Positions 25,051 to 64,000 of a DNA stretch of 64,000 nucleotides are shown one piece after another (the stretch's first letter is position 1; every line of letters begins with the position of its first letter). The position numbers and the translations under genes were made by a program. Origin of the DNA: a virus. The notes beneath the pieces were generated by a model that saw only the letters and a program-made list of their open reading frames with translations, made no database searches and was not told the origin of the DNA. The stretch is taken from positions 526 to 64,525 of the IMG/VR virus record IMGVR_UViG_3300000228_000006; one strand, written 5' to 3'.

Positions 25051-25093
25051 AAAAATGCCCAACTCACTTAATTGTGGGTTGGGCATTTTTTTT
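25051..25093. terminator. Bidirectional terminator at the strand-switch point
   Basis: AAAAATGCCCAACTCAC-ttaatt-GTGGGTTGGGCATTTTT between convergent genes. Confidence 0.88.
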
Positions 25094-28000
25094 ACTCTTC
25101 TTGTCAAAATTCAAAAGCTTTTATATCTCTAGATACCATTTGTTGTATCGTTTTATCTCCTGTAAGTACTCCTTGAATATCTGAAGCTACTTTTGTACCA
25201 TAGCTTCAAAAAACAGGTTCTGTTTTTATTGCTCCTAGTGTATTTCTCCACATATTTGTTTCAGATAACACTTTTTTATTTACGTTCTGTGCAAATAATG
25301 CAGCATTACCTGCAATACCTTCTCCTCCAGTTTCTTCTATTGTAGCATCTAAAATAGCTTTAAATATACCAAGAATTATCATCATAAATAATGTATCAGC
25401 TAATCCAAACATTACTCTTCTATTTCTTTGTTCATCTGCAAAAGCTCCCTTAAAATCTCCCTGTAATAAATCTTGTGTTGTATGTAACATAGCATAAATT
25501 AATCCTTCCTGTGGTTTTCCAGTCCATTCTAATACTGGATCTCCAGTATTATCAGTAGTTTCTTCAAAATCTGTAATTCTTTCAGGATCATATTTATCTT
25601 CATATAGGGCCTTTCTTCACCACTTAATAGGATTTTTCTGTTCATCAAAAGTGACTTTCTGTTGAAATTTACCTATAGGACTTGGGTTTATTTCATTACC
25701 TTCTTTATCATGCGTTGGTTTACCAAATCACATCTTCATCTTTCCTGGCCAGAATTGCATAAATTGCATAAAAATTACTCCATACCACATTTTTGAAGCT
25801 TGTGATGAAGCATCAGTATCATAATATCCATATGACATATCTGACATAGTTTTTATACTTGCTCTTTCATTTTCGCTATATGCTTTTGATACTAAAGCTG
25901 ATTCATCCATTTTTATATAAGAAGGATCTACTAAATTTTCTTTATTTAAATCATTTACTAAATTTAAATATAAGTTTCGTTGTGTATTATATTTTTCATC
26001 TCCTTGTTTAGGAATGTAACGTCCTTTAGAATCCTTGTTATTTTCTCTTTCTTTAAAGTAATATTCAAATCTTCTATCCTTAGATGGATTATAAATTAAT
26101 TCTCCTTCTGGCGTCATAGAATGAGCATCATAAGAACCATCATGTATAGAAACTGCTAAAAATATAGCCATACGATTATAATAATCTGGAATAGTGTTAA
26201 ATACATACATATATCTGCCCAATCCCTTCATAATACCCCGCCTATCTGTCTGCATTTTTTTAGCAATAGAATTAACGTCCATATTAGCAAACCTATATAA
26301 ATTATTCATACCTTCTATTAAATTCCATTCAATAGATGTTTTTTTATCTATAGTAACTAATTTTTTATAGGCACTTAACATATCTTCAGTAGTAAATAAG
26401 TCTTTACCAAATATCTGTGTAGCAGCTAATGATATTCCTTTGAGAGTTCCAATAGTTAACTCCTTAGCTAATAATGTAGGTCTAAAAGCAAGCATACCAG
26501 CTGTAGAAACTTGCTTAGCCGCAGAAGCTACTATCACTAAAGCCTCTGCTTCTGGGTCAATAATTGGGGCATCAAATACAGATAATTTTAATTGATTTTC
26601 GACATAAGATAATTCTTTAGATATATTAGTATTAGTCTTACCTGCATGTAATTTCATCCACCATATATATGATGTAATAGCTGGTAATCTAAAATCCATT
26701 TGAGTTTTTCTAATTTTATTAAAAGCTACTCTATGTGCAATTGTATCTAAATTAAATTCATAATAACTAACACCATTTTTTGAAATCATACTATGTTTAA
26801 ATGCATCTGTTTGTTTTCCATAAACATCATACATTTCAGTATATCCTAATTGTGATTCTGATGCAATAGTACGTTCTTCGTCTGATAATTCTCTTGGGTC
26901 AAGTATATCTTTAAGTTCATTTATCCTGCCCTTAATTCTGGTTCAAACTTGCCCTAAACCTCCCTCAATTAATCCTCCATGCCTAGTTAATTCTTCCCTC
27001 CTTACTAATGGAATTTTAAAGTACTCTCCTGATGTAATAGCTTTTGCAATTACTGGAATAGACATTAAATCTTCTAATTTATTAGTACTTAATTGTCCAC
27101 TCTCAAATTTACTTATAATTTCTGGATTTAAATGTAACATAAACTTTTGAATATGAAATAACATATTTTTTAAATAAATTCTTTCACTATCATTTAAATT
27201 ATTTTTTAAATCTACAATATATGGATTTTTAGTTTTAAATTCTATATTTACTTTACCATTATCTTGTAAAAACAAGTTAGAATGCTTACTTTGAGACTCC
27301 CCAACTCAATTTTGTGCCATATTTGAATAGCCAATTTTTTTATAGTAATCTCTAGTTAAAGATGAAATCTTAGCAGATTCCTTACACATTAACTCTGCAA
27401 TTTTTGAGTTGCCTAAAGACATTATTTTATTTATAGTTCTAAGGTCTTTAGATGGTACTCAGTCAGGAGTTACAAAACTTAATCCTTGAAACAACCCCAT
27501 TATTTTACGTTCTTCTTTATCAAAGTTAACTTCTCTTCCGCTATAAATAGCTCCCACTAAACTTTTAAAATCAGAGAAACCCAATCCCATTGTGGACATA
27601 TTATGAAAATCTCCAACTGGTAAATATCCTAATTTTATGTTAATAGCCATTTGAAGCATTGCAAATAAATATTCTTCTTTATTAGCAAAGTCTGTTGTTG
27701 GAGAAAAAGTTCTATCAGTTAATTCCGGATATCTAGCTATAAACGCTTTTTGTACTAAAACTAAATGTTTATAATCTGCACTAGCCCAATCAAAATCTCC
27801 TTGTTGTTTAAATAATGACTCTACTTCATTTTTATCAGTTCCAGAATAATTATTTAAAGTAGACCTTAATAAATCCATTACAACATTATCTACTGATTTA
27901 ATATCACTAATTTTACTTAATTTATTTTTATGATTCATACTAGCCTTAATCATTCGCTGTTCATATAAATCATATGCTTTAAAGTTTAACTCCTTATGAT

Positions 28001-29720
28001 ACTTTTTAGTTTCTAAATTAAATGTAATAATTTCCCCCAATTTAAATCCTCCAGAAAGTAATTCACTCTTAAATGTATTAAGAAATAGCATACTTTTAAT
28101 TGTATCTATATTTCCATAACTTAAACCATTTAGTCCAGAGTCTCCATTTAATCTATGGATGGTTATGCTTAATAAATTTATAGTGTGAGTTTTACGATTT
28201 CTCATAGGAATAATGCCCATTGCCCTAGCTTCTGGAATATCTATTAATTCCCATTCACTATTTAAATAATCTTTTAATAAATTATTTAAAAATATTTGCT
28301 TCTCTTTAATTGGGTATTTTAAAGCTGGATTTGAAGGATCACTAAGAACTGAACCAATAGCCTCACTTACAGTCATTACATTTCTATTAACTTGTTTTTT
28401 AACATGTTCAACATAAATTTCAACTTTTTTTCTAAATTCCTCCTCTGTATTAGCAGTAAAAGGGCCTTTAGGTAACCCATCTATATTATCATAATTATTA
28501 AATTTAGTCCATTGCCCATTTGTGTAGGCTTTTGCCATGATAGCCTCAACAGAAGAATCTTCATAATTAGTTTTTATTTTATATCCAGGAATTAATTCAT
28601 TTAAATCTAGTTCTAATTGTTTTTTCCTTTCTTCATTAACTTCAACTTTAATTCTAGTAGGTATTAATCATTCTGCAACCTGTGTTATAGCCCCATCTTC
28701 CCTTAACCCAGATTTAGTTTCCATTTTTCTATTGATTATATCTGTAAAAGTTAAAGAATTTGGGTCACCAAGTCTACTAAATTGAATTGGTATAATATTT
28801 AATTGCATATTTTTAATATTAATATGCTGTGCTAAAAGCTGCCTATATAAAGCTAACTGCCAATCAACCGTTAATAATTTAGCACTATCTCAATTATTAT
28901 AATTATGTTTAGAAACTTTAATTTCATATACATGTGCATCACCTTTTTCATCAATAGCTACCAAATCAAGTTTACCACTAACTTGAGCTATAGAATTTTC
29001 ATCACTAATAAGGAGTAATTCTGTAATTATTTCATTATTAGGACTTATTCTTCTGCCTATTGTTTCTACTAATTCAGTAATAGATTTTGTTCATTCTTTT
29101 TCGGTAGATTCTCCAAGTATATCTTTATTCTCAGGGTCAATAATAAATTTATCTAATTCTTTTTTAAACTTTGAACTAACTCCTTCTTTTAATGATATAG
29201 ACAATAATTTATGTAAGAATATACCAAATTTCTTAGTTTTTTCTTCTTCTTTTATAATTTCTTCAATTTCGGATAAATATAAATTAATTACATTATCATT
29301 TATATTAGGGTTACCTTCTTGCCTTAAAAACTCCCTAGTTATTTCTAAATCTTTAGATACGAGGACTTTACTAAAATCATAACTTGGGGATTGATTTTCA
29401 AGAACTCGTTTTTTTACGTAATGGTTTTTTCTATTAATCTCTATATATTGTGGAGTTAACCTATCCCTTTCTAATCCTAACTTTACTAAAAAGTCAGTGT
29501 TAAGTTTAGACATATATTCTGTTGTAGAAATGACATCATGGCTATTAAGGTATTCATTTGCCTTCTCAGCTTCTTTCAATAAAATTTGTTTTACACTTGT
29601 CTGAATTTCTTCTTTACTGTAAATAGCTGCATTTCTAAGAATTTTTGTTTCCTTATAAAATTTATCAGCTAAGCCAATTAAATCCAACGGTGCATTATCT
29701 AATTCATATGTACATCCCAT
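25092..29720 (-). CDS. Giant virion/cargo protein A (1542 aa, 10 TGA) with a PD-(D/E)XK-like nuclease domain
   Basis: Five track ORFs share one frame; the gaps I read contain only TGA stops. Starts MGCTY. Contains GKLDLVAID...YEIKVS...WQLALY. Confidence 0.85.
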
Positions 29721-29721
29721 T

Positions 29722-32700
29722 TTAATTACAATTTATTTCTAGTTTATTTTCTAATATTTTCTCTTCAATCCACTTTCTAAACTCGGCTTCAAACATAGTT
29801 ACACTGTTATTAAACAAGTTATTACTTTCTTTAAAATCAATTGGAAGTAATGATTCAATGGTAGTGTTTAATATATCTACAGGACTCAAGTCTTTAATAG
29901 TGTCTATATCAAATTTTAATCCCATATTTTCCATATGATTCATTAATAAATCAAGGAAGTTATTAATATCTCTTGGAAAATCTTCTACTGAAATCATTGC
30001 ATTTGCTATATTTGTTACAAATTTTTCTTCAATTTCATCTAATGTATTCACAGTTAAATTCATTTCTTGTTTATAAGATAATAAAATATCTTCATAAACT
30101 TCTCTAGATTCATTTGTTGCATACTTTAAATTAATTAAGAACACATGTAAAAACTCATGTAATACATCAACTTTATCAGTATTTTTATTATTTAAATTAA
30201 TATAGATTTTACCGCCCTCAATTTTAGCATATTCGTTTGGCTTAAAATTACTACCATTTTCATCTATAATAACTTCCATCTTGTATTTAGCAAAAATATT
30301 TTGTAAATGTTCTACAAATTCTTCCATTACTACTTTTCGTGAAGTTGGCTTTTCTTTAAAATTTTCTTTTTTATACTCTTTACTAAAAGTGTCAATTTTG
30401 CTATTCCCAACAATTCAATAATATTCAAATATTGAATTATCTCCATCATTACTTAATAGTACACTTAAAGGTATAGTTTTAAACTCTGTTAATAACTCAC
30501 CATTATAAGAATAAACATTATATTCTAATATAGCATTAGTATCTGATAGATTATTAATTCTATAAATTTTCTCATTAACATTTCCATTAAGCCTTAATTT
30601 AACATAAGCTCCTTTATTTAAATACTCTAGTTTCTTTTTATAGTCTAGTTTTTTAAATCCATTAACGGTAAATAATCCCTTAGTTTGTCTAGGTATAATA
30701 CCATTTTTATCCTTTGTTACTAATATCCTTTTAATGTCCTTTCCAGTTTTTTCTTTAATTTGTTTTAAAACTAAATCAGTTATATTAGTATAATTGCTAT
30801 ATTTTTCAGTAGTACTAAAAATCTTTTCTACTACAATCCCCATATTAGGGATATTGTAATTTAAGACTTGTAAGTTATTTAACATACCTAATTTCTCATT
30901 TGGCAATAAGTATGCAACTTCCACTTTATTACTTACAATTTCTCCTTCAACTGGTTCTGCAAAGAATGATTCTTCTAATGTCCAATTATTAGTAGTAACT
31001 GTATTTAATGCGTAAGGTGATGATATTTTTCTTGTAGTATAAAATTTTAAATCTTCATTATTAAAATCTAAAATACTTGTCAATCCTACAATACCTCCAG
31101 TAGCTTCTACAACTCTTCCAGAGACCTTATCTATAATTTTATAAACATTATATTTATTACCATTTTTGATAACCGCATAATCATTATTTTGTAATAAATT
31201 TAAATCATCAAAAGATGATAAGTTATTTTCTCTTATACTATTTCCCCCTAATAATTTATTATGTATATTAACGATTTCTTCTCCTTCTGTAATATTCATT
31301 GTATTTTTATCAATGAACACAGATAATATTCTAGACCTTTTAATGCTTTCAATTTTAAGACCATCTGAATAGTTAATTAAGATATAGACGTTATCAATAT
31401 CACTATCTATAACTTTATTATATACTTTTTTATTTTTATGAGATATTTGAATAATATCTCCTATATTAGCTAATTTGCCACTACCATTTGAAATATTTTG
31501 AAAGTTTTTAAGAGTTGCAACATCTAATGGTTGAAAATCTATATCGTTAATTTTAGAGCTTCTTACTGATGTAATAGTGTTAAAATCATAAATTTTATTA
31601 TGAGTACCATTAAATTTAGTATTTAATATAATAACTCCTGGATAAACTGCTAAGACATAACCATCATATTTTGTACCTCTTGATGTAGTGTATTTTATAA
31701 AACTACCTCTTTCTATATATCTTTGAACTACCTGTTTAGATAATCCAGCTTCATTACTTACAATATTACCATTAATTTTTTCTTCTGAAGTTAAATCTGT
31801 TAAATCTGCTTCTACTATATCTTTTGCTTCAAATTTTCTATATTCAACTGATAAATTATCATTTTTAACTTTAATTGTATCAAATGCTAATTCAATATTA
31901 GATTCTCCATCTAGAGTCCTACCTACTACTTTAATCCCTCCAGCATCAGCTTCTATACTTGTTGGTATAATTCATTTGCCTTCTTTATATTTACCTTTTT
32001 CTGGCAATTTAATAATATCAACCCCTAATCTAATATTAGAATTTAAAAAATTTAAAGTTTCTAAAATTAGATCTTGTTTACCAGAAACTTCAAATTTTTC
32101 TTTTGGGTTATAATAAAAATTTCTAACTAGTGTATCATTATATACAATATGTTCTTGTACATCTAATAATTGTTTGGCTTTAAGATTTACAATATTATTT
32201 CTATCATATTCGTTAGATAATAATGTTTGCTCTGTAAAAATAGGCACTCCATACTTTTTTGGATCTAATGCTGCAAATAATTGTTTTGAAATACTTCTAA
32301 ATTCACTCCCCTGCATTCTTCCAATTCCTTGTATATCTTCAGAACCTGTTCCTACTAAACTAACTAATGTATTTAATGTTTTCCTACCTTCTATAGTATT
32401 AAATAACTTATACATTTGACCATCTTCAAATGAATCTTTTGTCATTTTTCCTAAAAAGAAATCTTTAACATCCAATCCTTCTAAATTTATGGCATTTTTA
32501 CTTACTCCCTTTAATGTTGTATTATATGCAGTAAGTACAGTGGTTAAATCTTCTAAACGAATGTGCTTTGCAAATTTTGATTTAATTGCTACTAAAAATA
32601 AAGATAATGGATTATTATTTTGATAAAATCAAAATTCTGGTTTAGGAGTTTTACCTTCTACACCTCTGACAATAATAGTATTATTTTCTTTACTTAAATG

Positions 32701-33087
32701 ATTAATAGCAACTAATGTATTAGTTAATCTCTCTTGTTTTGTATGCATTATATCTAATGCTTTTAAAACATTCAAAGGAATTATACTATCTATAGCATTA
32801 TTTTCTAATTCAGCTATTTTAGTATATAATGATTGAATTTCATTTTTAATTGAAGTTTTATTCACTATACCTAATACTCCAATATTCTTAAAATAATCTG
32901 GAGTTATTTCTACATTAACTTTATTCAAAATATTGCTTATCTGTTCTGATTTTACAGTATAATCTCGTCCTCATGCTTTTAAGGCGGTTTCGATTGAAGA
33001 CATTGAGGCTTTAGATTCATCCTCAATATCGGTGGGGATTTTTAGTTCCCCACCATCTGGTAATTTAATAATATATGTACATCCCAT
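29722..33087 (-). CDS. Giant virion/cargo protein B (1121 aa, 4 TGA) with a C-terminal zincin-like HEFLH motif
   Basis: Four track ORFs in one frame joined via TGA; MGCTY...EINCN*. Confidence 0.85.
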
Positions 33088-33092
33088 TTGTT

Positions 33093-36000
33093 TTATTTAC
33101 ATTTTATTGTTATTATTAACGCATTTTCTTTAATATATTTAATAATATTTTGTATATTAAGGTATCGTTGTTTGTCTACTGATATTGGATCTAAAGTAGT
33201 ATTTACTACATAGTCTGTATTTATAATCCTTAAAAGCTTTTTAGCTCCTGTTAATGGATCTTTTACATATAATTGTCCACCTTTATGAAAAGTATAAAAT
33301 ACAATATCATTTTTCATAGCTTGCTCAGCTTGAGTTAGTGTTTTTATCTCTTCTTTTGTCTTAATTGGTTTATTTAATACTTCTTTATTATCATCTGTAT
33401 AATCGAATAAATCAATTTCACCAGAGTCTATTTTACTAGAAAAATGTAAATAATTATTACCTACAGTATTTGGCTCTTTAATATAATCTTCAAAAATTGG
33501 TGTCAGTCTTAAATCTCCATATGATTCATTATTTACAACTAAATTATAAACATAAAATAAATCTCGTCAACTCATATCTACTCCCTGAACATTTTGTAAT
33601 TTTTTCTTATTAAGGTCTAATTCATTAAATTCACTTAATAAATTTTGAAACTTATCTAAATTTACTGGATTATTTAATTGAGACATACTAAATGCAGAAA
33701 CAATAGCACTCATTCTTGAGCCATAAGCAGTTCTTAAACTACGAATAGTTAATGATTCCATAAATTTAGGATTATAGTCAGCTTTCTTTAAGATTGGAAC
33801 AATTAACTCTTCCATTATTTTTTTAAAGTTTGCTATTCCGTGATCTGTATCTAAAGTTACTAATAAATTATTATCTCCTTTTACAGTAATAATCTCAACA
33901 CTATCCTTACTAATTTTAGAATTAGCATTATATAATACGATTTCTTCTTCTCCTGCTAATTTTAATAATTCTTTCACGTCAAAACTAATATTTGAAGGGG
34001 ATGTTTTATCATTTGAGTCTTTGGATTGTGCTCATTTACCAACTAAAAACTTATCAAAAGCTAGTAAAGCCTTTGATAAAGCTATATCATTAATTTTAAG
34101 AGGTAATGCCCTATTTCCCATTTGATGTTTTAAATTTTCATTTAAAGTTTGTAACTCATCCGTTTTTTCTCTAGCTATACTTCTAAGATAATCAAATGCA
34201 AAGTTATACTTTTTTGATAACTTATTTAGTATATTATGAGATATTTTTACTCCATCAATCATAGCTTTAAAATGTGGCACTGATTCAATTACATCAAATA
34301 CATTAACTGTATCTTTTAACAGGTTATAATAATCTGCAGTAACTTTTCTGTAAGTGTCATTCTCATCCTTAATATATTCCCTAAAATCAAATTGACCTCC
34401 TAAAATTTTATATTTTACAGCATTATTTAATACTTCAATAATCTTAGATTCACTAACAGTTTTATTATTTTTTTTAATCAGTTTTATAAACTTTTTATCT
34501 GCTTCAGAGTTATTTCCAAAATCTCTTAAATAGATTAAATCATTTCCAAAAATTGCATGTTCTCTGGCAAACATAGTTGTTTCTAAATTGGTTAAAAACT
34601 TATTTAACTCTTTAATATTTGCAGATGTTTTTTGATTTACTTTTAAAAATCCAGATAACATTCTAAATTCTTGAGCTCCACTATACATAGATTTAAATGT
34701 AGCTAAGTCTGGACTAATACCATTAGCTTTTTCATAAGTTTGTAAAATCGTCGCTACAAACACACTATCATTTCCGTCAGACTCTAAAAATAAATTAGTT
34801 TCTAAACTTTTAGCTATATCTATCGCAACTTTGGAGTTCATAAATTTAGCAATGGTATTTTTATCAATACCAAGAGATAACATATATAAATGCATTGATG
34901 CTAATTCAACAGAGGCATTCAATTTAGCCATAGCTAATTCTTTTGCATTATCAGTTGCAAGTGATGTAAATCCGGACATTGCAATAGCAGCTTGACTTTT
35001 AAATACATCTAACTTTTGCTCGCCTTTAGATATAAACTGTTCTAATTGAGTTATTTGATGTTTTCTAATTCTTACATCAGATAAAGTTGAAATATTATAA
35101 CTCGTTTCTTCCATCACAAATTGCTTATTAAACAACTTATAATCATTGTCTACCACAGTATAATCTGGATCACTATAATGGTTATTATAATATGAAGTTA
35201 ATGCAAAATAAACTTTTAGGCCATTAGCTGCAATACCTACATCATCTTTACCAACAGAGGCATCTTTTTGTTGTTGCATTATGCTTATGTGGTCTAAACT
35301 TGATAATAAAAATTGAACTCCACCCTTTGCTTTTAATCCTTCACTTGCTGCATTTTGCCAATCTTCTACCTCTACAGGTTCATTTGCAATTAAATAATTA
35401 CTTGGAGCTGATATAATATTTTTAATTCTACTAATTACTGAATTATTTATTGCACTTTTCTTGTATAAATAATCTGTTGATAAATTATAATCATTAATTA
35501 ATTTTATAAAATCTTTTGTAAATTTCGAATATAATGGATTATTTCCTAAATTTATATGTAATGATTGGGATTTATTAATTTTTAATAGTATATCTCTTAA
35601 TTTATTAATAGAATCTACTGAAAAATTTGAGTTAATTGTAAAATAAGGCACTTTTTCTCCTTTCAAATCTTGAACTATACTACCTCAAACTTCTTCCATA
35701 GAATCTATAGTGTCATTATCTACACTATCAATAAATGCTTCAAATTCATCAGATAAATCTATACTATCAGCTATACCAGCTGGAGTATATAAAGCTTTAG
35801 GAGTAATAATTTTCTGTCCTCTCGTCTTTCCTTTTGTAATTCTATTATTTGGAAATGGCAATGTTTCTATAGCATTAAGTACTTCTTTTGAATTATAATT
35901 TAAAGGTGCTCACGAATCATATTGTCCATTTTTATCAAAGCCATATCCCATTATATATGCTTTATCAATATCAAAGTCAGAACCTTGCAACCAAAGTTGT

Positions 36001-50800: not shown

Positions 50801-50918
50801 CTTTACTAAATAATGAAGTATTATTTCCATTTATATTTGAGCTAAGTAGGTCATATGAACTTGCAGTAGGGTTATCCAATACTGCCACCATCATATCATT
50901 TGCTTTAGTTATTTCCAT
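41892..50918 (-). CDS. Giant virion/cargo protein D (3008 aa, 11 TGA) with N-terminal hydrophobic segments and an internal SF1 helicase-like domain
   Basis: Seven track ORFs in one frame. GGGGTGKTT, LLIDETTH, AGDTNQ, IQGNESDY and YTYISRA. Ends IFPC*. Confidence 0.85.
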
Positions 50919-52800: not shown

Positions 52801-55800
52801 TTATTTAAATACTTTTATTAAAGAATCTTGCATTAATTTATGATTAGCTAAGATCGTTTTATATAATAATCTTACTTCTTCAATACTTTTTTTATTTTCA
52901 TTTTTAATATTCTCAATATCTATCTTATCTTGTTTAGATAAACTGCCTCCTTTTTTGTTATAAGTTGGTTGATTATACATTAACTTCATTTTTACAATAT
53001 TAAGTCTATCAGTTCAATCTTCTATACTTTTAGTATAGGCTGTTCTAGCATTTGTCAAATCGAGGTATCTTTGAGATTGATTTCAAGGTTTCATTGTATT
53101 ACTGCCTTGTACTTTTAAAGCCTCTGCATTATAGTCAGTTTCAGCTTTTGCAAATGCAGCATCATCATACAGTTTAGATTTATCTCTTAATGCTTTATAT
53201 TCATCCCCAGTTTGCATTGCAATTAACTCAGAATAATCTTTTTCACGTTTTCTATTTGTAAGATTTTTTAAATATGATAATCCAAGATCATTTTTAATTT
53301 GGTATCTTTGAGCTATCCTATTAGCTTCAATTAAATTAGCTTTATTTGCTCCTTCTTTAATAGATGCATTATTCCAATCAGCAATTGCAGTATTTCCAAC
53401 AAGTGTTTTATAATCAGCATTAGCTTGTGCTTGAATACCTTTATTATATAATTCAGTTCCTCTCTCTCTATAACCTGCTGCAGCTTCTTCTCCTTTAGTA
53501 AACATTTGTAACTTTGCAGCCATTTGTTTATTTCCGTCAGAATAGGCATTTCCTGTGCTATTGCCAACTGTATTAGCCTCTGTTTTTACATTTTGAGCCA
53601 TTCTATCATAAGGATTATACATAATAATCCTTTGATTAGGTTGCATAGTTTTAGTTGCTACATTAGTTACTGCTTGAATTTGTTTAGCAGCACTTTGATC
53701 AACAGCGTCTAATCCTTTTAAAGCTAAAGTAGTGTTAACTATATCTGTAGGGTCTATTTTAATTTTACCTCAATTTATAGGCTTAGATTCAGCTTTATAT
53801 GCAGTTCCTGTTTTATCATTTACAATAATAGGAGTTTCTACTATTGGTTTTTCAGAAATAACAGCAGGAGTAGGAGTTGGTGCTTGTTCCGTTTTTACAG
53901 GTAAAGTTGCTTGGTATTTTTTCATTACAAAATTTTGTATTGGGCCAAAATAATTATCTGTAACAAGCCTGGTGAATTTATTATAATCTTCTGGAGTTAA
54001 TCGAACCGAGCTTTTAGTAGCAGTAATGTGCTTATTTAAGTCTGGCAAATACTCTAAAAATTGTTGTTGAGAAATATTATGTCTAAAAGTGTCCCACTCT
54101 GGTGTCTTTTGAAATTCGGTAGGTTTTCCATAAGGAATGTAATGCTTTAAATTCTTTGGAATTTTTGCATAATCCACTAAAACTTCATTTCTAACAATTC
54201 CAGGATCAGCTGGGATTTGATGTTTTACAATTCCACCTTGTTGTCTTTTCAAAATTCTTTGTACCTCAGCTCTATATTGATTAAATTTTTCTTGTGTTTT
54301 AGCATAGGACTTTTGAGTTGATTCATTGTCTTTTGTTTTAAGCTTTATTTTAAGTTTATTAACTTTTGCACCTAAATCCCTATTTTTAACTTTATTGTTC
54401 ATTTTTTCCTGCAAAGCTTTAATTTCTTTCATTTTTGCAGCACGTTTTGCAACTTCTTCTGGGCTTCTAGTTACTTTTGGAATAGTTCCTTGATAATCAT
54501 TAAGGTATTTTTTAGCTAATTCATAATCTCTAGTATCAATAGATCTATCACCATTTGGAGTTACTTTTGGGCCTTTACCTAAAATACGTAAATCACCTTT
54601 AACTTCATGAATAGCACTAACATTAGATAATTTTAAATCTTTTAAAGTTTTCATTTCAGCCTCTGTAATCTTACCCTCAGCTTTTAATGTAGCTATTAAT
54701 TCATCTTTCAATTTATTATCAATCTCCTCATTTTTAAGAGCAATTTTTTCTTTATTTTGAAATGGAAGTTTATCTTTATTTAATCCTAATACTTTACTAT
54801 CTTTTGGCCTTTCAATTGTTTTATCAACTGAAAATTCTTTATCACCTAATTTAAAAGTAGTTTCACCTTTAGTTTTAGTTCCAACAGTTGTTTGTCTTTT
54901 GATTGCTCTTATACCTTCAAAATCTTTATACCAAGTTTTACCAATACTACCTGCAATAGCCATAGCTTTAAAATCTTCTGGTCTAGTATATTCTATACCA
55001 TCATTAGATATAGTTGAAACCACTCCTGGAGCAGCCATTAGTCCTGGAGTCATTCCAGCAATTCTTGCACTATTTCTTACAAATTTATTTTTTGTTAATT
55101 TAGTCAATAATTCTGATGAATTTGGTATACTTTTCCAAACAGCTTGTGTAGCAGCTCCTAAAGTAGTACTGCCAAGTAATGGAATTGAAGCATTTTGCAC
55201 AACTTCTAAAGCCTCCATACCTTCCTTAATAACTTTATCAGCTAACACTTTTTTAGAAGCATCTAATTTAACTACTTTTTTAAGTAATTCTTGCGTAGTT
55301 TTAGTGCCATGTATTTTATTTAAAGTTGCTATTTCTTGTAATGCAGTTTTTTCAGAGGAAGTTAACACTTTACCAAGCTTTTCAGATTTTGTTATTACTT
55401 TTGCAATATCAAACCCCTTGTCAACTGTTTTACCTAATTTAAGTAAAGTTTTAACTCCACCTAAACCAATTAGTGATAATCCAATAAACCCGAAATTTAG
55501 TATATGTGTCCCTAAATCATCTACTTTACCATCTAATAAATCTTTAGTTAAATCTGCGCCTGTTGTTACAGTTGCTCCAATTGCACCAGCTACTGGAATA
55601 AATGAAGCCACTGTTCCCGCGGTTGACAATACATCTAACCCATTCTCTCTCCAATCTTGCCCCTTCCATGTACCTGTTATATCTTTTGCTCCTCTTGTTG
55701 TTTTTTCTGTTTTTTCTGTTGAGGCAGTTGTAGAGTTTAATTTATCTTGGTAGGCTTTAAAATCAATACCTTTTTGAGCTTTAATAATTCCTCCAACTTT

Positions 55801-57498
55801 ATGTTTCATTATACTAGTTCCTCCTAAATGCTTATTATATGTATCCAAGGCTGCCATAATTCTTTTCTTTAACTTTTCATCATTTTTTACAACTGGGTCC
55901 TTACCTAAACTTCATTTTAAGGCTATTGCTTTGTCTGTTAAATGACTGCCAGTTTCTCCTTCTCCTTGATTTTCTAAGTTAGCTTTTTCAATAGCATTTA
56001 AGTCATCTGTATAATCATATACTTCTCCTGTTGTTTCCGCTTTTGGAATTTTATCAAACGCTACATCATAGTTTATTGCCATATTAATTTCACTGCCATA
56101 CCCTTTTAATGTAAATTCTTGGCCATTAACTGAATATTTTCCATTTACTGGACTTACATCAAATGTTTTTCCACCATAAGTAACTTTTAATTGCTTAGAA
56201 TAACTCCTTCTGCCTAAAATGTCTGTGTTGTACTTACCATCTTTATCATCTGACCACCCCACAACTTTATACCCTTGTGGTAAATCAGTTAAAATTTCTC
56301 TACCTACATTACCTCAAGTCTTTTCAGGATTTTCAGCTAATAATGCTTTATATTGATCAGATGTATTATTTTTTGTATAAATAAAGCCGTGATTAGGATC
56401 ATTATACCAAGCTGTCCCATATTTAGGATCAAATTGATTTGATACATTAATACCTTGAAAATCATTCCCATTTTCATCAATTACTCTACGTTTACCTGAA
56501 GTAGTATGAATTAATACTTTAGCTCCTTTATTACGAATTAAAGTATTAATATCTTCATTTTGAAATTTATAATTTGGATTATATTCATACCCAGCCTTAG
56601 CTAATTCTTGTGCTTTTTCTGGTGAAGTTATCTGTGTTAATCCAGTATATGCATTATTAAGTTTTATAGTTAAATCTTCTGCTTTTTTAGTGTCTGCTTC
56701 TAATTTTAATTGTTCTGTAGTTTTAAGAAAATTTTCAGTACTAATCCCTAATTTATCAAAAATTCCTTGATAATCTGCTAATTTTGTAGCTCCAGTCGAT
56801 GCTTTAGTATTGAAATCATTCAAAGATTGCACTGCTAAATTATATTCTTTTTCATCATATTTATCAACTCCTTTATTAGCTTTATTAGTTTCATAATTAG
56901 TTTTATATGTTGTAAGTAAATTTTTTAAGTTATTTACATAGAATATATTTTTTTCTTCTTCTGTCATTCTATTAATAGCTTCACTTGTAACTTTTACATC
57001 ATTATTATATTGTGAAGTAAGAAAATCAGTGTATTTTGGCATAACTCTTTCATAGCCAGCAGGTGTAGTAGTTGGTGTAGTAGTTGGTGCAGTAGATATA
57101 ATACCCCTTAAATCAGCCATTGCAGATGATAATCCCCTATCTTGTCTCTCTGCTTTATTCTGTTCTTTAGTTCCAAATAAACTACCATGTGTATATCCTT
57201 GTAATCCAAGGAATCCTTTATCTAAAGATACTCCTTGATGTCCGCTTCAATCTTGCGATTTTAAATTTTCTGGTAATGCAGCCACATTAACAGTATATGT
57301 TCTATCTGGATTAAATTTAACAGCTTCCTCAAAATTTGGTAAATCTAATAAACTCTCGACTTGTTTATATTGATCATGGGATTTACGTTGGTCTTTTGAA
57401 GATAGTGTGTAAAATTTATCTCATAATTGTTTTTTTAATTCAGTTTTATCAGGAGTTGGGGTTGTACCTCCTTGTTGTAATTTTTTTATTTGAGACAT
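52801..57498 (-). CDS. Putative virion cargo protein F (1565 aa, 7 TGA) with Gly/Ala-rich hydrophobic segments
   Basis: Five track ORFs in one frame. ATG at 57498 (MSQIKKLQQGG). TM-like VASFIPVAGAIGA and FGFIGLSLIGLGG. Confidence 0.82.
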
Positions 57499-57661: not shown

Positions 57662-57675
57662 ACTATAAATACAAT

Positions 57676-57709: not shown

Positions 57710-57717
57710 TAATTTAG

Positions 57718-57993
57718 TTATTTTCTTCCTATCAAGATTAATCCTTTTCCTCCCATTTTACCACCACGTTTGTATACTGGAGGTCCTTGTGGTTGTACTG
57801 CTCCTACTTGTTGCGCTGCTCCTTCAAGCATTTGCATAATCATTTGTGCTAACATTGCAGCTCCTTCTGGACCTACTTGTTGAATAATCTGTTGTGCCAT
57901 TTGTGCAATTTGTTCTTCTGCACCACCACCTTGAGGCTGTCCTTGCTCTACTTGACCACCCTCTTGAAACTTTTTAATAAAATTTACTGTCAT
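57718..57993 (-). CDS. Small Gln/Gly/Met-rich putative capsid-interior cargo protein (91 aa)
   Basis: KKFQEGG at the N-terminus and YKRGGK at the C-terminus flank an amphipathic Q/M-rich core. Confidence 0.75.
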   Translation of the reverse strand: MTVNFIKKFQEGGQVEQGQPQGGGAEEQIAQMAQQIIQQVGPEGAAMLAQMIMQMLEGAAQQVGAVQPQGPPVYKRGGKMGGKGLILIGRK

Positions 57994-58050
57994 TTTTTGT
58001 TTTTGTTTAATTAATTAATATATGTATGTCCTCATATGCATTTAATCATC

Positions 58051-58626
58051 TTATTTCTTAGTTACGTATTCTGGGTCATTACTTTCTTGAGTGTCAAGAA
58101 ATTTAAAAACTCTTTTACCTAAATTTATATAATCATTATCTTTATCTGTAGCAGCTGCTTTTTTAGCAAACTTAATTAGTGTTTTTGAATTTGGTCTTGA
58201 GAATATTCTTTCACCACCTTCTAATTCCATTTGTGTTCCACCATCACTACCTAATATCTTCATTTTATTCTTAACTGTATGATTAGTTGAGAATTCTAAT
58301 TCATCCCCTGGCTTAATCCCAGAGGGTGTATTAACTTCTAAAACAAATGCAACATCAGTTTCTGTAATTGGTGTTTCATCTTGTGGAATTCCTTGCTTAA
58401 CCGATATAACCTCCATTTCTTCATTTATAAAAATGATGTCTAATGGTATTAAAGTACCCTTCATTCAAAATGAGCTTTCAGATTGTATTTCATTATAAAT
58501 AAATAACATTCCTCCATCATCTTTAAGTGATTCAACATTCATCAATCCATTTTCATGTTCTGTGTCTGTTTCTGCAACTTTAACTTTATATTCTTTATCA
58601 GCAATCTTTATATTTAGTTCTTTCAT
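58051..58626 (-). CDS. DUF192-family protein (191 aa, 1 TGA)
   Basis: GMLFIY...SF(W)MKGTLIPLDIIFI...VLEVN; the family Trp is the TGA at 58465. Confidence 0.85.
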
Positions 58627-58641
58627 TCTTATTATTTTATA

Positions 58642-58677
58642 CAAAGATAATAAAATTATTTTAATTAATAACTATAA
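58642..58677 (-). promoter_or_regulatory. Promoter TTATAGTT-N20-TATCTTTG (minus strand)
   Basis: AACTATAA at 58670-58677 and CAAAGATA at 58642-58649 on the + strand; 15 nt before the DUF192 ATG. Confidence 0.6.
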
Positions 58678-58723
58678 AAAATTAAAAAATTAAAATAACT
58701 TTATTATGATGAGTTTAAATGAG

Positions 58724-59281
58724 TTAGTTTACAAATTGTTTTAGTATATCTGTGATATCGTAATTTATAGAATCCCCTCGTTGTTTTTTAGTTAAAAAGG
58801 AAGATTTATTATTCTCATTTAACAATGGATTTTTAACACTGTTTAAATCATTGTAAGATCCAACTTTTCTAGGAGTTTCTAGCTTATTTACTAATGAATA
58901 AAATGCTGTAGTACTGTCATTATTATTTCTCATTAACTCATTATCAAAATCAGTTTTATGAATATCTATAAATTGCTTTGCTGGCACAGTTTGAGTACCT
59001 AATCTTTGAGTTGAGTACTTAATTAAATGCTTTGGCAAAGAAGTTGTAGATTCTTGTATTTTACGAATACTGTTATGTATTTCCCCAACTTTACTATCAA
59101 ATGCTAAATTAACAAAAGAGTCTTTGGTTATAGGATTTAGTTTAGTAATCTTATTAAATAAGACATCGTTAGATACAATAGCATTAACTGCGTTCTTATA
59201 CTCTGGAGTATATTGGCCTTTATTCAATCCTCAGAAATCTGTAGAAGCCCCCGTTTGGGCTTTTAAAATATATTTTTCCAT
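58724..59281 (-). CDS. Hypothetical putative virion protein (185 aa, 1 TGA)
   Basis: ATG at 59281 (MEKYILKAQTG); TGA at 59231. Confidence 0.7.
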
Positions 59282-59284
59282 AAT

Positions 59285-60523
59285 TTATATTGTTTGAATT
59301 AGTCCTGTATTATCAATTGTGTTTTCTAAAATTTCAAACACTAAAAGTTTACCTGCTTCTAATGCAGCTGTGTTATCTCCCTCTTTATACCTTTGATTTA
59401 AAGCCTCTAATTCTTTACTAACTTCTAAATGGAAAGTAATCTCATTTCTTTCAATTTCAGCATGTTGTTCAATTTTACCTCCCTCTTCAACTGTAATTAC
59501 AGGAATTCCTGTTGTAGTAATATCCTCAACTCCTTCAATATTATGTTTATGAGCATGTAAAGCACCTTCTGGTATCAAATTAAATTGACCACCACTAGCA
59601 AATAACGTTACATCATCACTAATAGTTTCTCCAGTATTTTCATCTAGAAGTATGAGGTTTTTGATGTGGTTAGCTTTAGCTTTAATATTCTTAAGTTGAA
59701 GTTTAGTACCTTTTTTAGCTAATAAACCCTTAGTTGGATCAAATCCTCCTAATTTATTTATATTAGAAATACTTTTTTGCTGTGCTAAATCTAAAGCTCC
59801 CATTTTTAACTGATCTTGTTGTTTACTAACTGCCTTAGCTAACCCTGCTTGCTGTATTACATTATTTTTAGCTGCTGCAAAATCCTTCATCTTCTTACTA
59901 TCAGTTCAGCCAAAGGCCTTGCCCATGACAGCATCACTTCCAGTTACTCCTCCATAACCACTTCCAATACCATCTAAATTAACTTGTCGTGTAGTTCCAG
60001 CTTTTTTACTCAATGCTCCTCCAACAATATTATTTACAGCTCCAAATGTTTCTAATGCTATTTGTATACCTTGACCTCAAGGCCCAAAATTACCTGCAAT
60101 ACTGCCTAAAGCAGAAGCTGCATTACTAGCAGTTGAGTCAGCAACAGTACCTCCTGAAGAAGATATAGCAGATTGAATTCCTTGAGATATTGCTGGAGAA
60201 AGAGCTGCAGCTATGTTTAAACCATTTGGTGCTTTAGCATCCGGATTTTCTGTTTTTGTAGCAGTTCCAGTAGCATCTGTCCCTTTCTTTCCTTTAGTAT
60301 AGTTCTTAGAATTACTTCCTAATAAAGAGTAATCAAATTTTATGGACTTGTAATCAAATCCCTGTGAATTATTCCCAAATCCCTGTGAATTGTAATCAAA
60401 TCCCTGTGAATTATTCCCAAATCCCTGTGAATTGTAATCAAGCTTCTGTGGATTGTAATCAAATCCTTGTGTATATGGAACAAGTTCTGTTTTTCTTGTT
60501 AATTCATTAAATTTTCATGGCAT
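59285..60523 (-). CDS. Putative cargo/pilot-like protein (412 aa, 3 TGA) with heptapeptide repeats and a Gly/Ala-rich segment
   Basis: ATG at 60523; TGA at 60515, 60077 and 59906; continuous with the track ORF. Confidence 0.75.
60331..60470 (-). repeat. 21-bp tandem repeat encoding alternating DYNSQGF/GNNSQGF
   Basis: Four exact alternating units plus degenerate flanking units. Confidence 0.9.
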
Positions 60524-60561
60524 AATTGTGAAAAGATTTTAATTTTTTATATTTCATGTTT

Positions 60562-63500
60562 TTAACTATAACTAATAGTAAATGTTGTTTTAATTCCTTG
60601 CACTATTGCAAGGTCTGTTCCAGAGTATTTAACTCTTACTTTAATGTATTTATCTCTAATTCTTGCCTCTTTTCCAGTAGTGAAACTTAAGATTCCATTA
60701 CTTAAATAAGCATACTTAAAGTTAATAGGCTTAATTTCAATATCTCAAGAATCTTCTAAATACTGCATATTACCTCTCATTCTACCATATTTTTTCAAAT
60801 CATTTCCAATTTGTTGAGTATGTACTTTATCTTCACTTAAAAGATTATCTGTTATAAGTTTAGTGTTTGCTGTATTCCATTCATAATTATTTTTTCCTAT
60901 TACATTCAAATCAGCAGGGCTTATATACCGCTCTCTTGGTAAGTATGGTAACTTTGGTATTTTATAAGAATCACTTACATTAAATAATTTTGGAAAATCT
61001 GAATAAGTACTCTTTAAATAGGCATATGTATTAGCTAAAACTGTTGTATATCCAGTGTCAATACTATTAAATGTATCATCCTTATGCTTATCACTAATTC
61101 AAACTATAATATCTTTATAATTAAATCAATCATAGCCTTCCCCAACTACTTCAAATTCAAATGAATTAGGTGCAGCTTTATTAGATATTAATTTAAGATT
61201 GTTATAAATTTTTTGAACTGCTGGATTTTCAGCTACAACAAATTCAAATTCAAATGGGTGTAAATCACCATATCAATTTGTTGGAAGAATCTTTCCTTGA
61301 TTTGAATATATACCAGATTGACCATGTTTTCATATTTTATTCCCAATTTTTTTATTAAAACTAAAAAATACATTGTTTATATTAGCAGAATAACTTGGTA
61401 GCCAAGAATAAAGTGTAATAAACTTTTTAAGGTTTTCATTATAACATAAATTCCATTCTTTATCCCCATTATAAAATGTAAACATAATATCTCCTTTAGA
61501 GGCATTATAATGTGTTTTTACATTTCTAGTACCAATTATTGGTAATTTATCTGATTCTTTTAAATCTATATTTTCATTTAAAAATCTTTGTACTTTTAAG
61601 TCAGATATAGTAACTAATGTTTGACCATCAGACATTCATATTTTTTTAGCTACAGTATCTACTCCGTATATACCAGTTTTAGTCTTAATAACTGATTCTT
61701 GTCAAGTACTCCCATATAAATCAGAAATTACCTTAGGATTTTCTGGGAGAACATTACTAGTATTAATATATATACTGCCACCAGCACCTTCTCCTGCTAT
61801 CGCTCTCTCATTAACTGGAATTAATAAACAACCATGTTCCATTGTGACGAAAAGATTGCCATATCATTCTTTCATGTCTACAATTGCTCCATATGTTTTT
61901 GTATAATCTCTATAATGTCCTGCATTAAATACCCTATATCCATTTTTAAATGCATCTGTGGGTGCTAAATCTGAATATAATATTCTATTGCCAAAGTAAT
62001 TTTTAATAAATGGAATGTCTGGAGTAATAAAATTAGAACGTTTAGATAAAGTTACATTAGCTGCACCATTAATTATATTGGAATCTGGCAGTTTTAAATC
62101 ATCTGACATTTTATTACCATATGGATAAAACTCTCTTTTATGTCCATGTATAGCTTCTTCTGTAGGATCAGAACTACCTAGATCTCTCATAGCTATATTA
62201 ATACTAGACATAACTTTAAATGTAACTCAATGTCCTAATGGAACAGCATTTACATCAGCTCTATTAATTTTATCACATCCTCTAACTGTATATGTTGTTG
62301 AGCCAAAAATATTCCCCAAACCTGTTCCAGCAGTATCATATCCAGCATCAGATGGCTCTATTATTTCATCAGTGCCATTTTTTTGTTTATATGTGATTAA
62401 TTGTCTATTATTTCCTGGTGCATCAGAATAGACTGCATAATTATTTTTCCATGTGTTTCGGTCAATTATTTTTGTATTTGTTGGTAAATCAGGATCAATA
62501 AAATTTCTATTCATTCTATGAGTAAAATTATTAATATAACAATCTCCTCTGTATGCAGTTACTATATTATCTATAGCAAGAATAGAATTAAAAGACATTC
62601 TATCAGTAATTGCCATGTAAGGCTCTGATGAATTCATCCTAATATCAAACATATTAGTACTATATATATCTGTTATATCAAAATCTTCTCCTCTTACATT
62701 AAATACAGTATTGAATGGCAATTCTACATTTAATCCTACATATGTGCCAAACTCTCCTCTTACTTGATACACGCTATTTTTTAAAACAGGGTGCATCCCT
62801 GATGCAACAGCATAATTTCATGGTGTTTTAACATTTACAGTCTCCCAAGCTTGTTCTGCATTTCCAGCCTTAGCTGAAAAATAATCACTTCCATTAGTAG
62901 TTAATGTTAAACCATCATTTACAAGAGTTAATAATGATTCTATTATTTCATTATTATTTAATGTTGAATATCTATCTATAATATAATGATCTGAGTTTTC
63001 TATCTTTTTAAATCCACTATTACTAACAGGCTGTTCAAATGCTTTAGTTAATTTATATTTAGTAGAGGTAAATAATTGATTAAATAATGAAGTTCTTAAT
63101 GACGCTTCCGGAATTATACTTGCTTTATTTTCCAAGTTTTCTAAATCATGTCCTTCTAATATCTTTGTTGTTTTCTTTAAATACCTACTGTCATCTAAAA
63201 AGTGTTGTGATACTCCTTTATCATAAGCTTTGATTATAGGTATATTACCATAATCATTTTTTGTTTTAGCAATACTTATACCTTGTGCATATATTGTTGG
63301 TATGCGTTCTTGTCGTACAATAAAAAACCCTTTTGTATATTTCTTTAATTCGGTTAATGTAGAGTCATCTTGGATTTTAAATTTTATGCCTAATGGCTTC
63401 ACACCATTATTAAAAATCACCTGACGTTTGTTTATTTTAATTACTCCTAGTGCATTTTCAAATGAATTAACTCCATTTGCTATATAACCCTCTTCTGTTG

Positions 63501-64000
63501 TGTTTATATAATTTCTATTAGTTGAGCCATTGGAAAAAACGGGTTGATTACTATATGCATCCGATTTATCAAAATTTAATCCTCGAATATTAAAGACAGA
63601 AGATAGTGTATAATCATTTAATATATAAACAATACCTAATCTATAGTACTCTTCTGGCCAATATCCCAATTTATAGTAAATATTAGTTGGATTATAATAT
63701 TCATATGACTTCCTGCCTGATTTATCTTCATATGTTCCATCTAAATTTCCAATAATATCTTCAGAAGATGTAATTTCTGGAATAAATCTTAATGATAAAT
63801 CTTTTAATTCAGTATATGGTATATTTGTTTTATTTACATTTCCAAAAAATAACATATCCTGACATTGAGTTTGAGCTTTCACTTTATCTACAACTTCATA
63901 ATTTAAATTTATTTCAGTTAAGTCAATGTGGGTATGATTCTCAAATCCATTAATAGTTATATTTATACTTGTATTATTAATAGGATACTTTTCTTCTATA
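60562..64000 (-). CDS. Large tail protein (crAss-type stabilization/muzzle-like), 5'-truncated, >1145 aa, 10 TGA
   Basis: One frame. PTN(W)YGDLHPFEFEFVV, I(W)KHG and RDKYIKVRVKYSG resemble crAss-like tail stabilization proteins (from memory, not searched). Confidence 0.7.

Follow-up and report, generated by a model that had tools for sequence, protein, structure and literature searches.

TGA is read as tryptophan in the virion genes of a probable Zeta-type crAss-like phage and is absent from thirty of its replication genes

Introduction

The known hosts of crAss-like phages are Bacteroidota that use the standard genetic code. The phage Lera, a crAss-like phage of the Zeta group (PV725988; 179,624 bp), has a forward block of genes for nucleic-acid metabolism and tRNAs and a reverse block of virion genes; TGA encodes Trp in 41 of its ORFs, most of them structural and including the muzzle, two ring proteins and most lysins, and the genome contains homing endonucleases as well as a tRNA-SUP-TCA and a tRNA-SUP-CTA (PMC12386605). 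In a survey of circular genomes from the human gut, reading of TGA as Trp or of TAG as Gln was found in 243 genomes and mostly in late genes, and the large genomes, of 145–192 kb, had abundant introns and inteins (Yutin et al. 2021, PMC7886860). Suppressor tRNAs were often, but not always, found there, and ORFs within introns also carried TGA (PMC7886860). Low GC and a dominance of TAA stops characterize the TGA-recoded Agate and Jade phages, for which a role of recoding in lysis timing has been hypothesized, and only about 35% of the genomes using code 4 had a detectable suppressor tRNA (Borges et al., bioRxiv 10.1101/2021.08.26.457843). Here we describe a viral genome fragment in which the same recoding separates most late genes from the replication genes.

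Results

The window studied is a stretch of 64,000 nt, positions 526–64,525 of the 75,878-bp contig IMGVR_UViG_3300000228_000006, which has an estimated completeness of ~43% (CheckV) and a G+C content of 27%. The signature virion proteins of Crassvirales (major capsid, muzzle and ring proteins 1 and 2) were all recovered, with Crass_capsid (3.1e-14) and crAss_MUZ (Table 1) above the Pfam cut-offs and CrAss_Ring_2 (1.3e-05) and CrAss_Ring_1 (0.0044) below them. The genes for the crAss-type TerL and portal are located past the contig end. Capsid identity to the nearest phage records in GenBank is only 46%, a megablast search of GenBank phages with 24 kb of the window gave no match, and synteny with the complete relative G004 is confined to 106–179.5 kb of that genome. 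The window is probably derived from a large crAss-like phage genome of the Zeta-group type, about 43% of which is represented; the Zeta assignment is based on traits of the relatives, namely 178–205 kb genomes, 25–27 tRNAs, TCA and CTA suppressors and homing endonucleases. Upstream of genes, the Bacteroidetes-type -7 motif TAYCTTTGTA occurred four times, compared with an expectation of 0.94.

Table 1. Features of the window and their tryptophan codons (window coordinates; minus-strand genes read with table 4)
Feature	Coordinates	Strand	Trp codons	Remarks
Replication/nucleotide-metabolism block (helicases, DnaB, primase, RNR, dUTPase, ligase)	1..24066	+	30 TGA-free ORFs	
DUF1064 (resolvase-like) gene	6200..6733	+	1 TGA (codon 18)	11 nt past primase stop
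Split AAA-like gene, two halves	9003-9419 and 11002-11343			
LAGLIDADG homing-endonuclease ORF	9513..10583	+	TGA at codons 4 and 119	source of AY(W)LGFL
GH19-type lysin	24187..25047	+	3 TGA (codons 76, 89, 94), 0 TGG	end of plus block
1542-aa virion-block protein	25092..29720	-	10 TGA, 12 TGG	N-terminal PD-(D/E)XK nuclease domain
1121-aa protein	29722..33087	-	4 TGA, 2 TGG	no known family
2924-aa giant protein	33093..41867	-	9 TGA, 8 TGG	
3008-aa giant protein	41892..50918	-	11 TGA, 6 TGG	weak AAA_19/SF1-like match
625-aa late-block protein	50920..52797	-	0 TGA, 3 TGG	
1565-aa protein	52801..57498	-	7 TGA, 8 TGG	
DUF192 protein	58051..58644	-	single Trp = TGA	Pfam E = 1.7e-22; W60 of 197-aa reading
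185-aa protein	58724..59281	-	1 TGA, 0 TGG	
412-aa protein	59285..60523	-	3 TGA, 0 TGG	
Crassvirus muzzle protein	60562..64000	-	10 TGA, 6 TGG	Pfam crAss_MUZ E = 2.3e-33; continues to window coordinate about 64700

When read with table 4, the minus strand of 25092–64000 contains 11 ORFs, nine of which have in-frame TGA codons. These sum to 56 (10+4+9+11+7+1+1+3+10) alongside 45 TGG codons, exactly matching the approximate figure given in a preliminary description of the window; the minus strand of the whole contig has 20 genes with 70 TGA and 64 TGG. The preliminary description had proposed a comparison of coding densities, and this clearly separates the two codes: the fraction of the late strand covered by same-strand ORFs of at least 300 aa rises from 0.50 under table 11 to 0.95 under table 4, and that covered by ORFs of at least 100 aa from 0.77 to 0.98. 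The table 4 ORFs tile tightly, with gaps of 1–40 nt, and reach 3008 aa. Searches with the late proteins were largely uninformative, as nine of the ten had no match in PHROGs, and a PDB sequence search with the 2924-aa protein and the muzzle protein gave none. The contig has 52 TAA stops, one TAG and no TGA; the claim that no gene ends in TGA thus holds. As TAG is also nearly absent, the lack of TGA stops is partly explained by a preference for TAA.

The 30 ORFs of the plus-strand replication block use TGG for all 79 Trp codons and end in TAA, with one exception ending in TAG; being TGA-free, they are readable by an unmodified host ribosome. This agrees with the roughly 30 TGA-avoiding replication genes described earlier, except that three other genes on the same strand do carry TGA. 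Over all 33 plus-strand ORFs we counted 6 TGA and 80 TGG, against 70 and 64 in the 20 late genes (p = 5e-13, Fisher test), the "late" class being assigned by function and position. Within the late genes, TGA makes up 0.52 of the Trp codons, compared with 0.81–0.93 for the A-ending codons of K, E, Q, L and R. The TGA codons are spread uniformly along the genes (mean relative position 0.54, KS P = 0.27), and the nucleotide at +4 showed no bias after TGA in comparison with TGG. Five genes of the late block lack TGA, and the capsid gene has one TGA against six TGG.

To identify the encoded residue we aligned the TGA columns with homologs, a check suggested in the preliminary description. The TGA of the DUF192 gene, within the motif SSF(W)MKGT as originally reported, aligns with W in 79/79 relatives, 77 of which use TGG, and the position is W in the solved structures PDB 3m7a and 3pjy. 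In the muzzle protein, the TGAs at aa 825, 1000, 1022 and 1319 correspond to W in 75–79 of 75–80 relatives; these four sites and aa 139 of the major capsid protein are at least 95% W in TGA-free relatives and mostly encoded by TGG there. W1986 of the 2924-aa protein is W in 20/20 relatives, and W1505 of the 1542-aa protein aligns with W in 19/20. The orthologs of these two proteins in G004 have 2984 aa, open under table 4, and 1556 aa, respectively, and that of the 3008-aa protein has 2815 aa. In TGA-free relatives, 11 TGA columns had W as the majority residue and 10 had Y/F, and none had G, C or R. Over all aligned cells the columns contained 42% W, 23% F/Y and 7% L, with G and C outside the ten commonest states, a profile that mirrors that of TGG columns. 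Several TGA columns have nonaromatic residues in distant relatives, but these sites are poorly conserved and such variation is expected, making them uninformative about the residue. None of the gene ends in relatives coincided with a TGA. Some "short orthologs" of the giant proteins, of 960–1,200 aa in TGA-free relatives, initially resembled gene ends close to a TGA but turned out to be ORFs truncated where the retrieved loci ended. The codon is exchanged freely with TGG: of 57 Trp columns shared with the closest relative, 21 were TGA–TGA, 8 TGA–TGG, 16 TGG–TGA and 12 TGG–TGG, giving 24 flips. TGA and TGG are equivalent sense codons in the virion block, and the same is true for the lysin, the intron endonuclease and the DUF1064 nuclease.

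The last three genes belong to the plus-strand block, and the TGA split therefore follows expression class and not strand. The closest relative shares the N terminus of the DUF1064 gene, including its TGA at codon 18, and has a second TGA inside the domain. The LAGLIDADG ORF, whose AY(W)LGFL motif had been listed among the minus-strand examples, is in fact on the plus strand within the replication block. It is placed between the halves of a split AAA-like gene, both of which match a single 315-aa gene in G004, and is thus inside an intron; a scan of viral contigs with the LAGLIDADG protein found no relatives. Homologs of the GH19 lysin (L156 and L157) align from aa 88–90, across W94, and no start codon is present between the TGAs and the conserved sequence.

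No tRNA of any kind was found on the 75.9-kb contig, inside or outside the window, and neither RF1 nor TrpRS is encoded in the contig or in the complete relatives, extending the earlier observation that the window has no tRNA-Trp(UCA) or release factor. Locus L003, which overlaps the contig at 99.98% identity and extends 9.7 kb past its end, contained no suppressor tRNA according to Aragorn. Allowing introns and lowering the threshold, Aragorn made 119 scattered calls on the contig, two of them "tca" inside coding sequence, and we treated these as noise. When the contig was searched by short-word BLAST with the suppressor tRNAs of the relatives, only chance 10–14-mers were returned. On the other hand, the complete relatives G002 (178,140 bp, 27 tRNAs, both TCA and CTA suppressors) and G004 (about 205 kb) each have a tRNA(UCA) beside a tRNA-Trp(CCA). 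The tRNA(UCA) occupies the same syntenic slot in both, close to the start of the leftward block, in a stretch of TGA-poor nonstructural genes, and directly downstream of one orthologous small gene; PhoH follows next in G002 but is further downstream in G004, beyond HNH and RNR-like genes. The predicted tRNAs differ, that of G004 having 74 nt and being closest to its own tRNA-Gln, and that of G002 having 96 nt with a long variable arm and being closest to its own tRNA-Trp. The 754-aa RNR-like protein from this slot, used as a probe, was widespread in unrelated phages and recovered no contig from the window's own samples. The lack of a tRNA(UCA) on the contig is best explained by the contig representing ~43% of the genome, given that both complete relatives have one.

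Discussion

We consider it very likely that this large crAss-like phage, probably of Zeta type, makes an opal suppressor tRNA(UCA), and that UGA codons are read as Trp in those genes that are translated once this tRNA has accumulated. As none is present on the contig, the suppressor of this phage is inferred from the relatives; its gene would reside in the portion of the genome that the contig does not cover, in the position it occupies in the relatives, about 4–6 kb into the head of the leftward block. With no RF1 or TrpRS encoded, the tRNA would be charged by the host TrpRS and compete with the host RF2. The avoidance of TGA in early genes and the Bacteroidetes-type promoter motifs point to a standard-code Bacteroidota host, in which TGA-bearing genes could not be completed before the suppressor is present.

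Three other readings of the TGA codons can be weighed against this. If TGA were a true stop and the giant ORFs were runs of separate genes, pseudogenes or products of leaky read-through, the pieces seen under table 11 would indeed each be ORFs of 100–730 aa. However, up to eleven successive pieces share one frame and tile without gaps, each ortholog in G004 is one ORF of matching length whose TGAs are placed elsewhere, homology continues across the TGAs with no TGA at a gene end in relatives, and leakage through 9–11 stops would yield no product; this reading is virtually untenable. It is extremely improbable that TGA encodes some other residue, such as Gly (as in table 25), Cys or selenocysteine: table-25 phages were found by Borges et al. 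(bioRxiv 10.1101/2021.08.26.457843), and the tRNA(UCA) of the relatives is labeled "SeC" by Aragorn and has a long variable arm in the G002 copy, but no TGA column has a majority of G, C or R, the residue profile mirrors that of TGG columns and the invariant Trp of DUF192 is TGA. A host that itself reads UGA as Trp (table 4), with the phage sharing its code and no switch taking place, would fit both the G+C content, as in many table-4 organisms, and the lack of a suppressor tRNA on the contig. Such a host would impose no avoidance of TGA, whereas the 30 early ORFs use TGG for 79/79 Trp even though other A/G pairs are 82–93% A-ending; the tRNA(UCA) beside tRNA-Trp(CCA) in complete relatives, the Bacteroidetes-type promoter-like motifs and the standard code of known crAss-like hosts likewise speak against it, and we regard it as very unlikely.

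A separate question is whether TGA has been selected in late, lysis and nuclease genes as a timer that blocks their translation until the code switches. In favor of such an adaptive gate, all three Trp codons of the GH19 lysin are TGA and lie within 19 codons ahead of the catalytic domain, the DUF1064 codon-18 TGA is conserved in the closest relative in an otherwise TGA-free operon, the intron endonuclease encodes Trp as TGA only, and lysis genes are preferentially recoded according to Borges et al. (bioRxiv 10.1101/2021.08.26.457843). On the other side, the low TGA share of Trp in late genes, the uniform positions, the free flips between close relatives, and the five late-block genes without TGA and the TGA-poor capsid gene all fit drift in any gene translated once the suppressor is present. 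These sequence features are thus as compatible with a passive constraint as with a gate, and we lean somewhat against selection for timing. We also consider, as a speculative and rather unlikely refinement, that the code switches gene by gene at translation, independently of transcription units: a conserved suppressor slot at the start of the leftward block, where the leader genes are TGA-free, would then time the virion genes as well as single genes in early operons (DUF1064, the intron endonuclease and the lysin with its three clustered TGAs). If true, a single codon would delay a nuclease that is required only for debranching prior to packaging.

Recoding of UGA by a tRNA(UCA) is also seen in the cellular table 4 code of Mycoplasma and Spiroplasma, which have AT-rich genomes. 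There the change is genome-wide, RF2 has been lost and TGA is the dominant Trp codon; here it concerns only part of the genome (0% of Trp as TGA in the 30 early ORFs and 52% in late genes), and UGA decoding would have to compete with the host RF2. Among phages, Lera resembles, by description, our relative G002 in having the same tRNA-SUP-TCA and tRNA-SUP-CTA pair. In Lera, however, TerL, RNAP and a helicase also carry TGA (PMC12386605), whereas the helicases of the window are TGA-free and its TerL is off the contig. A relative of about 205 kb places the lineage of the window slightly above the 145–192 kb range of the gut survey (PMC7886860). Agate and Jade are other phage lineages with Firmicutes hosts, and Jade phages additionally have RF1 and TrpRS (bioRxiv 10.1101/2021.08.26.457843), neither of which is encoded by this contig or its complete relatives.

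The statement that late-gene recoding is already established for crAss-like phages is borne out, as the same architecture is present in Yutin 2021, Borges 2021 and Lera 2025. The bias of TGA toward virion and late genes holds as well, but the clean split is one of expression class and not of strand, given the three TGA-bearing genes in the plus block. The pattern is real and clean, yet well documented, and the window adds one more clean example. The recoding must nevertheless be recognized for correct annotation, as table 11 breaks the virion block up into ~40 spurious short genes and conceals proteins of 1,100–3,000 aa. Two leads emerge: the conserved genomic slot for an opal suppressor in complete relatives, and the three TGA-bearing genes in a replication block that otherwise has no TGA, with which the timing of translation by recoding could be tested.

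Results

Under the standard code (table 11), the minus strand of the window breaks into many open reading frames (ORFs) of 100-730 aa each. Under table 4, which reads TGA as Trp, it forms a tight tiling of ORFs of 1542, 1121, 2924, 3008, 625, 1565, 197, 185, 412, and ~1379 aa, containing 10, 4, 9, 11, 0, 7, 1, 1, 3, and 10 in-frame TGA codons, respectively. The preliminary description had estimated about 56 TGA in nine minus-strand genes, and the exact count is 56 in nine, alongside 45 TGG; the 20 late genes of the whole contig hold 70 TGA and 64 TGG. ORFs of at least 300 aa take up 0.50 of the late strand with table 11 and 0.95 with table 4, in agreement with the recoding proposed there. Among the plus-strand genes, 30 ORFs use TGG 79 times and TGA never, and the late genes differ strongly from all 33 plus-strand ORFs (6 TGA and 80 TGG; P = 5e-13, Fisher test). 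Since TGA is frequent out of frame in the plus-strand genes (97 in frame 2 and 471 in frame 3), its absence in frame is not compositional. The claim that replication genes lack TGA stands for these 30 ORFs; three other plus-strand genes carry TGA. As also claimed, no gene ends in TGA, the stops being 52 TAA and 1 TAG; because TAG is nearly as scarce as TGA, a general preference for TAA accounts for part of the missing TGA stops.

We translated 112 related IMG/VR loci under table 4 and tallied the residue opposite each TGA of the window. The TGA column of DUF192 had W in all 79 relatives, encoded by TGG in 77, and corresponds to the W conserved in the solved structures 3m7a and 3pjy of bacterial DUF192 proteins. 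The columns of the muzzle protein at aa 825, 1000, 1022, and 1319 had W in 75-79 of 75-80 relatives, and that of the capsid protein at aa 139 in 29 of 30. Across all TGA columns, W made up 42% and F/Y 23% of the aligned cells, resembling the TGG columns (61% W), and none had a majority of G, C, or R among the relatives themselves without TGA. The closest relative is G001 (78 kb), whose proteins are 75-93% identical; the Trp columns shared with it were TGA-TGA in 21 cases, TGA-TGG in 8, TGG-TGA in 16, and TGG-TGG in 12, an exchange that is the behavior of synonymous codons. In G004, a complete relative, the giant proteins have orthologs encoded by single ORFs, 2984 and 2815 aa long, in which the TGAs are placed elsewhere. 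One TGA that seemed to fall where a gene ends in distant relatives proved to be an artefact of locus truncation. The reading of TGA as Trp is thus borne out by the homologs, with no real gene end found at a TGA.

The phage is crAss-like, as its Crassvirus major capsid and muzzle proteins gave Pfam matches above the cut-off, those of two tail ring proteins falling below it. The best capsid identity in GenBank phage records was 46%, and the lineage is sparsely represented among those records. The window covers bases 526-64525 of a single virus contig of 75,878 bp, which CheckV estimates to be 43% complete; no terminal repeat is present, and the G+C content is 27-31%. The plus-strand genes up to 25047 serve replication and nucleotide metabolism, their products including SNF2 and DnaB-type helicases, a primase, a class II RNR, an SF1 helicase, a dUTPase, and a DNA ligase. 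From 25092 to the contig end only minus-strand genes are found, and these form the virion block. The blocks run towards each other and meet at ~25.07 kb, where the GC skew switches sign. Gene-for-gene synteny with G004 is confined to 106-179.5 kb of the latter. A 14-kb IMG/VR contig from IMG sample 3300000228 (L003), which shares 4.3 kb with ours at 99.98% identity, runs 9.7 kb past the contig end with further minus-strand genes. Our contig (end at ~75350 in window coordinates) and that of G001 both stop no more than ~1.3 kb from where the capsid gene starts. Homologs of the crAss001 type span only 79% of the class II RNR, in two pieces, and an insertion or additional N-terminal domain is possible.

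Because three plus-strand genes carry TGA, the split follows expression class and not strictly strand. The LAGLIDADG motif AY(W)LGFL, previously placed in a minus-strand gene, is in fact at codon 119 of a plus-strand ORF within an AAA-like gene split by ~1.6 kb. Both halves of that gene match one uninterrupted 315-aa gene of G004, and we therefore take the ORF to be an intron-borne homing endonuclease. The insert itself is consistent with being an intron; Rfam detected no group I intron there at E <= 1. The DUF1064 gene retains its upstream peptide and first TGA in G001, where a second TGA lies within the domain. Homologs of the GH19 lysin align from residue 88-90, through W94, and no start codon separates its TGAs from the conserved sequence. 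Beyond the window, the capsid gene is separated from the next virion gene by a NUMOD1-type homing endonuclease. All 4 of its Trp codons are TGG and none is TGA, the reverse of the codon choice in the early-block LAGLIDADG endonuclease.

Neither Aragorn nor Rfam (E <= 1) detected a tRNA on the contig, which also encodes no RF1 and no class Ib tRNA synthetase; the reported lack of a tRNA-Trp(UCA) in the window extends to the whole contig. Aragorn also found no tRNA in L003, including the 9.7 kb past the contig end. Among complete relatives, G002 is a 178,140-bp circle, and the 213,486-bp record of G004 overlaps itself at the ends, positions 1300 and 206183 repeating each other and implying a circle of ~204.9 kb, which exceeds the 145-192 kb of the largest crAss-like group (PMC7886860). 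Each shows 81% capsid identity to the window and has TGA in frame in the genes that have it here. Each also carries 24-26 tRNAs in a plus-strand array and, apart from these, a single tRNA(UCA) on the minus strand. In both, this tRNA is directly 3' of a small gene that is orthologous between the two and lies at 30117-30545 in G004; PhoH follows in G002, and an HNH and an RNR-like gene intervene before PhoH in G004. Within the leftward block, the slot lies 4-6 kb in from the head and is surrounded by non-structural genes poor in TGA (HTH regulator, HNH endonuclease, PhoH, PD-(D/E)XK nuclease, and GroEL-like chaperonin), and the TGA-rich structural genes begin further downstream. Although syntenic, the two opal suppressors look unrelated, which suggests replacement or independent origin. 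Neither relative encodes RF1 or TrpRS. Judging from these relatives, the window phage would have a suppressor in the same slot, tens of kb past the contig end, which would depend on host TrpRS and compete with host RF2.

G002 also carries an amber suppressor, and its virion genes contain TGA with no sign of in-frame TAG seen; one of its ORFs, of 4301 aa, has 39 TGA. Several tRNAs of these relatives have unusually long variable regions.

Coordinates of features in the window (unless another record is named)
Feature	Position	Strand	Remarks
DUF1064 gene	6200-6733	+	TGA at codon 18
AAA-like gene, halves	9003-9419, 11002-11343	+	
Insert in AAA-like gene	9420-11001	+	
LAGLIDADG ORF	9513-10583	+	between the AAA-like halves
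Class II RNR	17221-20472	+	1083 aa; Pfam barrel domain begins at residue 359
GH19 lysin	24187-25047	+	TGA at codons 76, 89, 94; 0 TGG
1542-aa protein	25092-29720	-	PD-(D/E)XK nuclease domain, residues 149-302
3008-aa protein	41892-50918	-	weak AAA_19/SF1-helicase-like match, residues 1787-1964
NUMOD1-type endonuclease	L001:13015-14112 (~72490-73587)	-	outside the window; window coordinates in brackets
TAYCTTTGTA	9485, 11438, 17147	+	
TAYCTTTGTA	58640	-	
tRNA(UCA)	G004:30014-30087	-	regular 74-nt cloverleaf, A1-U72, G73; closest to own phage's tRNA-Gln(UUG)
tRNA(UCA)	G002:161242-161337	-	96 nt, long variable arm; closest to own phage's long-armed tRNA-Trp(CCA)
tRNA(CUA)	G002:24197-24271	+	amber suppressor
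tRNA array segment	G004:82862-83123 (= L116:1590-1851)	+	adjoins tRNA-Trp(CCA); 82-nt tRNA with two-base 'anticodon' (tc) and 90-nt tRNA-Tyr(ata) (Aragorn)

Discussion

The distribution of TGA guarantees that the TGA-bearing proteins would not be completable until suppression is available; that the recoding might be a selected gate between early and late genes, as the preliminary description proposed, is unproven. In the late genes, TGA makes up 52% of Trp codons, compared with the 81-93% A-ending codons given by the mutational bias of the genome. Its position along genes is uniform (KS P = 0.27), late genes differ from one another only weakly in their use of it (permutation P = 0.046), the capsid gene is poor in it (1 of 7 Trp codons), and five late-block genes have no TGA. 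These features fit drift that is tolerated, though not free of cost, in whichever genes are translated once the suppressor has appeared. The best signs of selection are hints, namely the lysin with its clustered TGAs and the conserved TGA of DUF1064, which recall the lysis-gene bias of Borges et al. (bioRxiv 10.1101/2021.08.26.457843).

Three lines of evidence point to a standard-code Bacteroidota host. The early genes shun TGA altogether, while A-ending codons make up 82-93% of other A/G pairs; the relatives carry their own suppressor; and a Bacteroidetes-type -7 element (TAnnTTTG) is present. In the form TAYCTTTGTA it has four matches versus 0.94 expected by chance, all of them correctly oriented in front of a gene, and precedes both TGA-free genes (RNR and the 11552 ORF) and TGA-bearing ones (LAGLIDADG and DUF192).

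The initial observation holds with small corrections, the identity of TGA and its late bias being confirmed. The bias was rightly described as established: Yutin et al. 2021 reported TGA as Trp or TAG as Gln, mainly in late genes, in 243 crAss-like genomes, with suppressor tRNAs sometimes undetected and intron ORFs containing TGA (PMC7886860), and Borges et al. proposed that recoding regulates late and lysis genes and found a suppressor tRNA in just ~35% of code-4 phages (bioRxiv 10.1101/2021.08.26.457843). G002 agrees nearly point for point with the published Zeta-group phage Lera (2025; PV725988), which has 179,624 bp, 26 tRNAs including SUP-TCA and SUP-CTA, and thus the same pairing of opal and amber suppressors, 41 TGA-bearing ORFs including muzzle, ring proteins, and lysins, and a forward replication/tRNA and reverse virion block (PMC12386605). 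The recoding pattern is therefore one already documented for crAss-like phages, to which this window adds a further instance.
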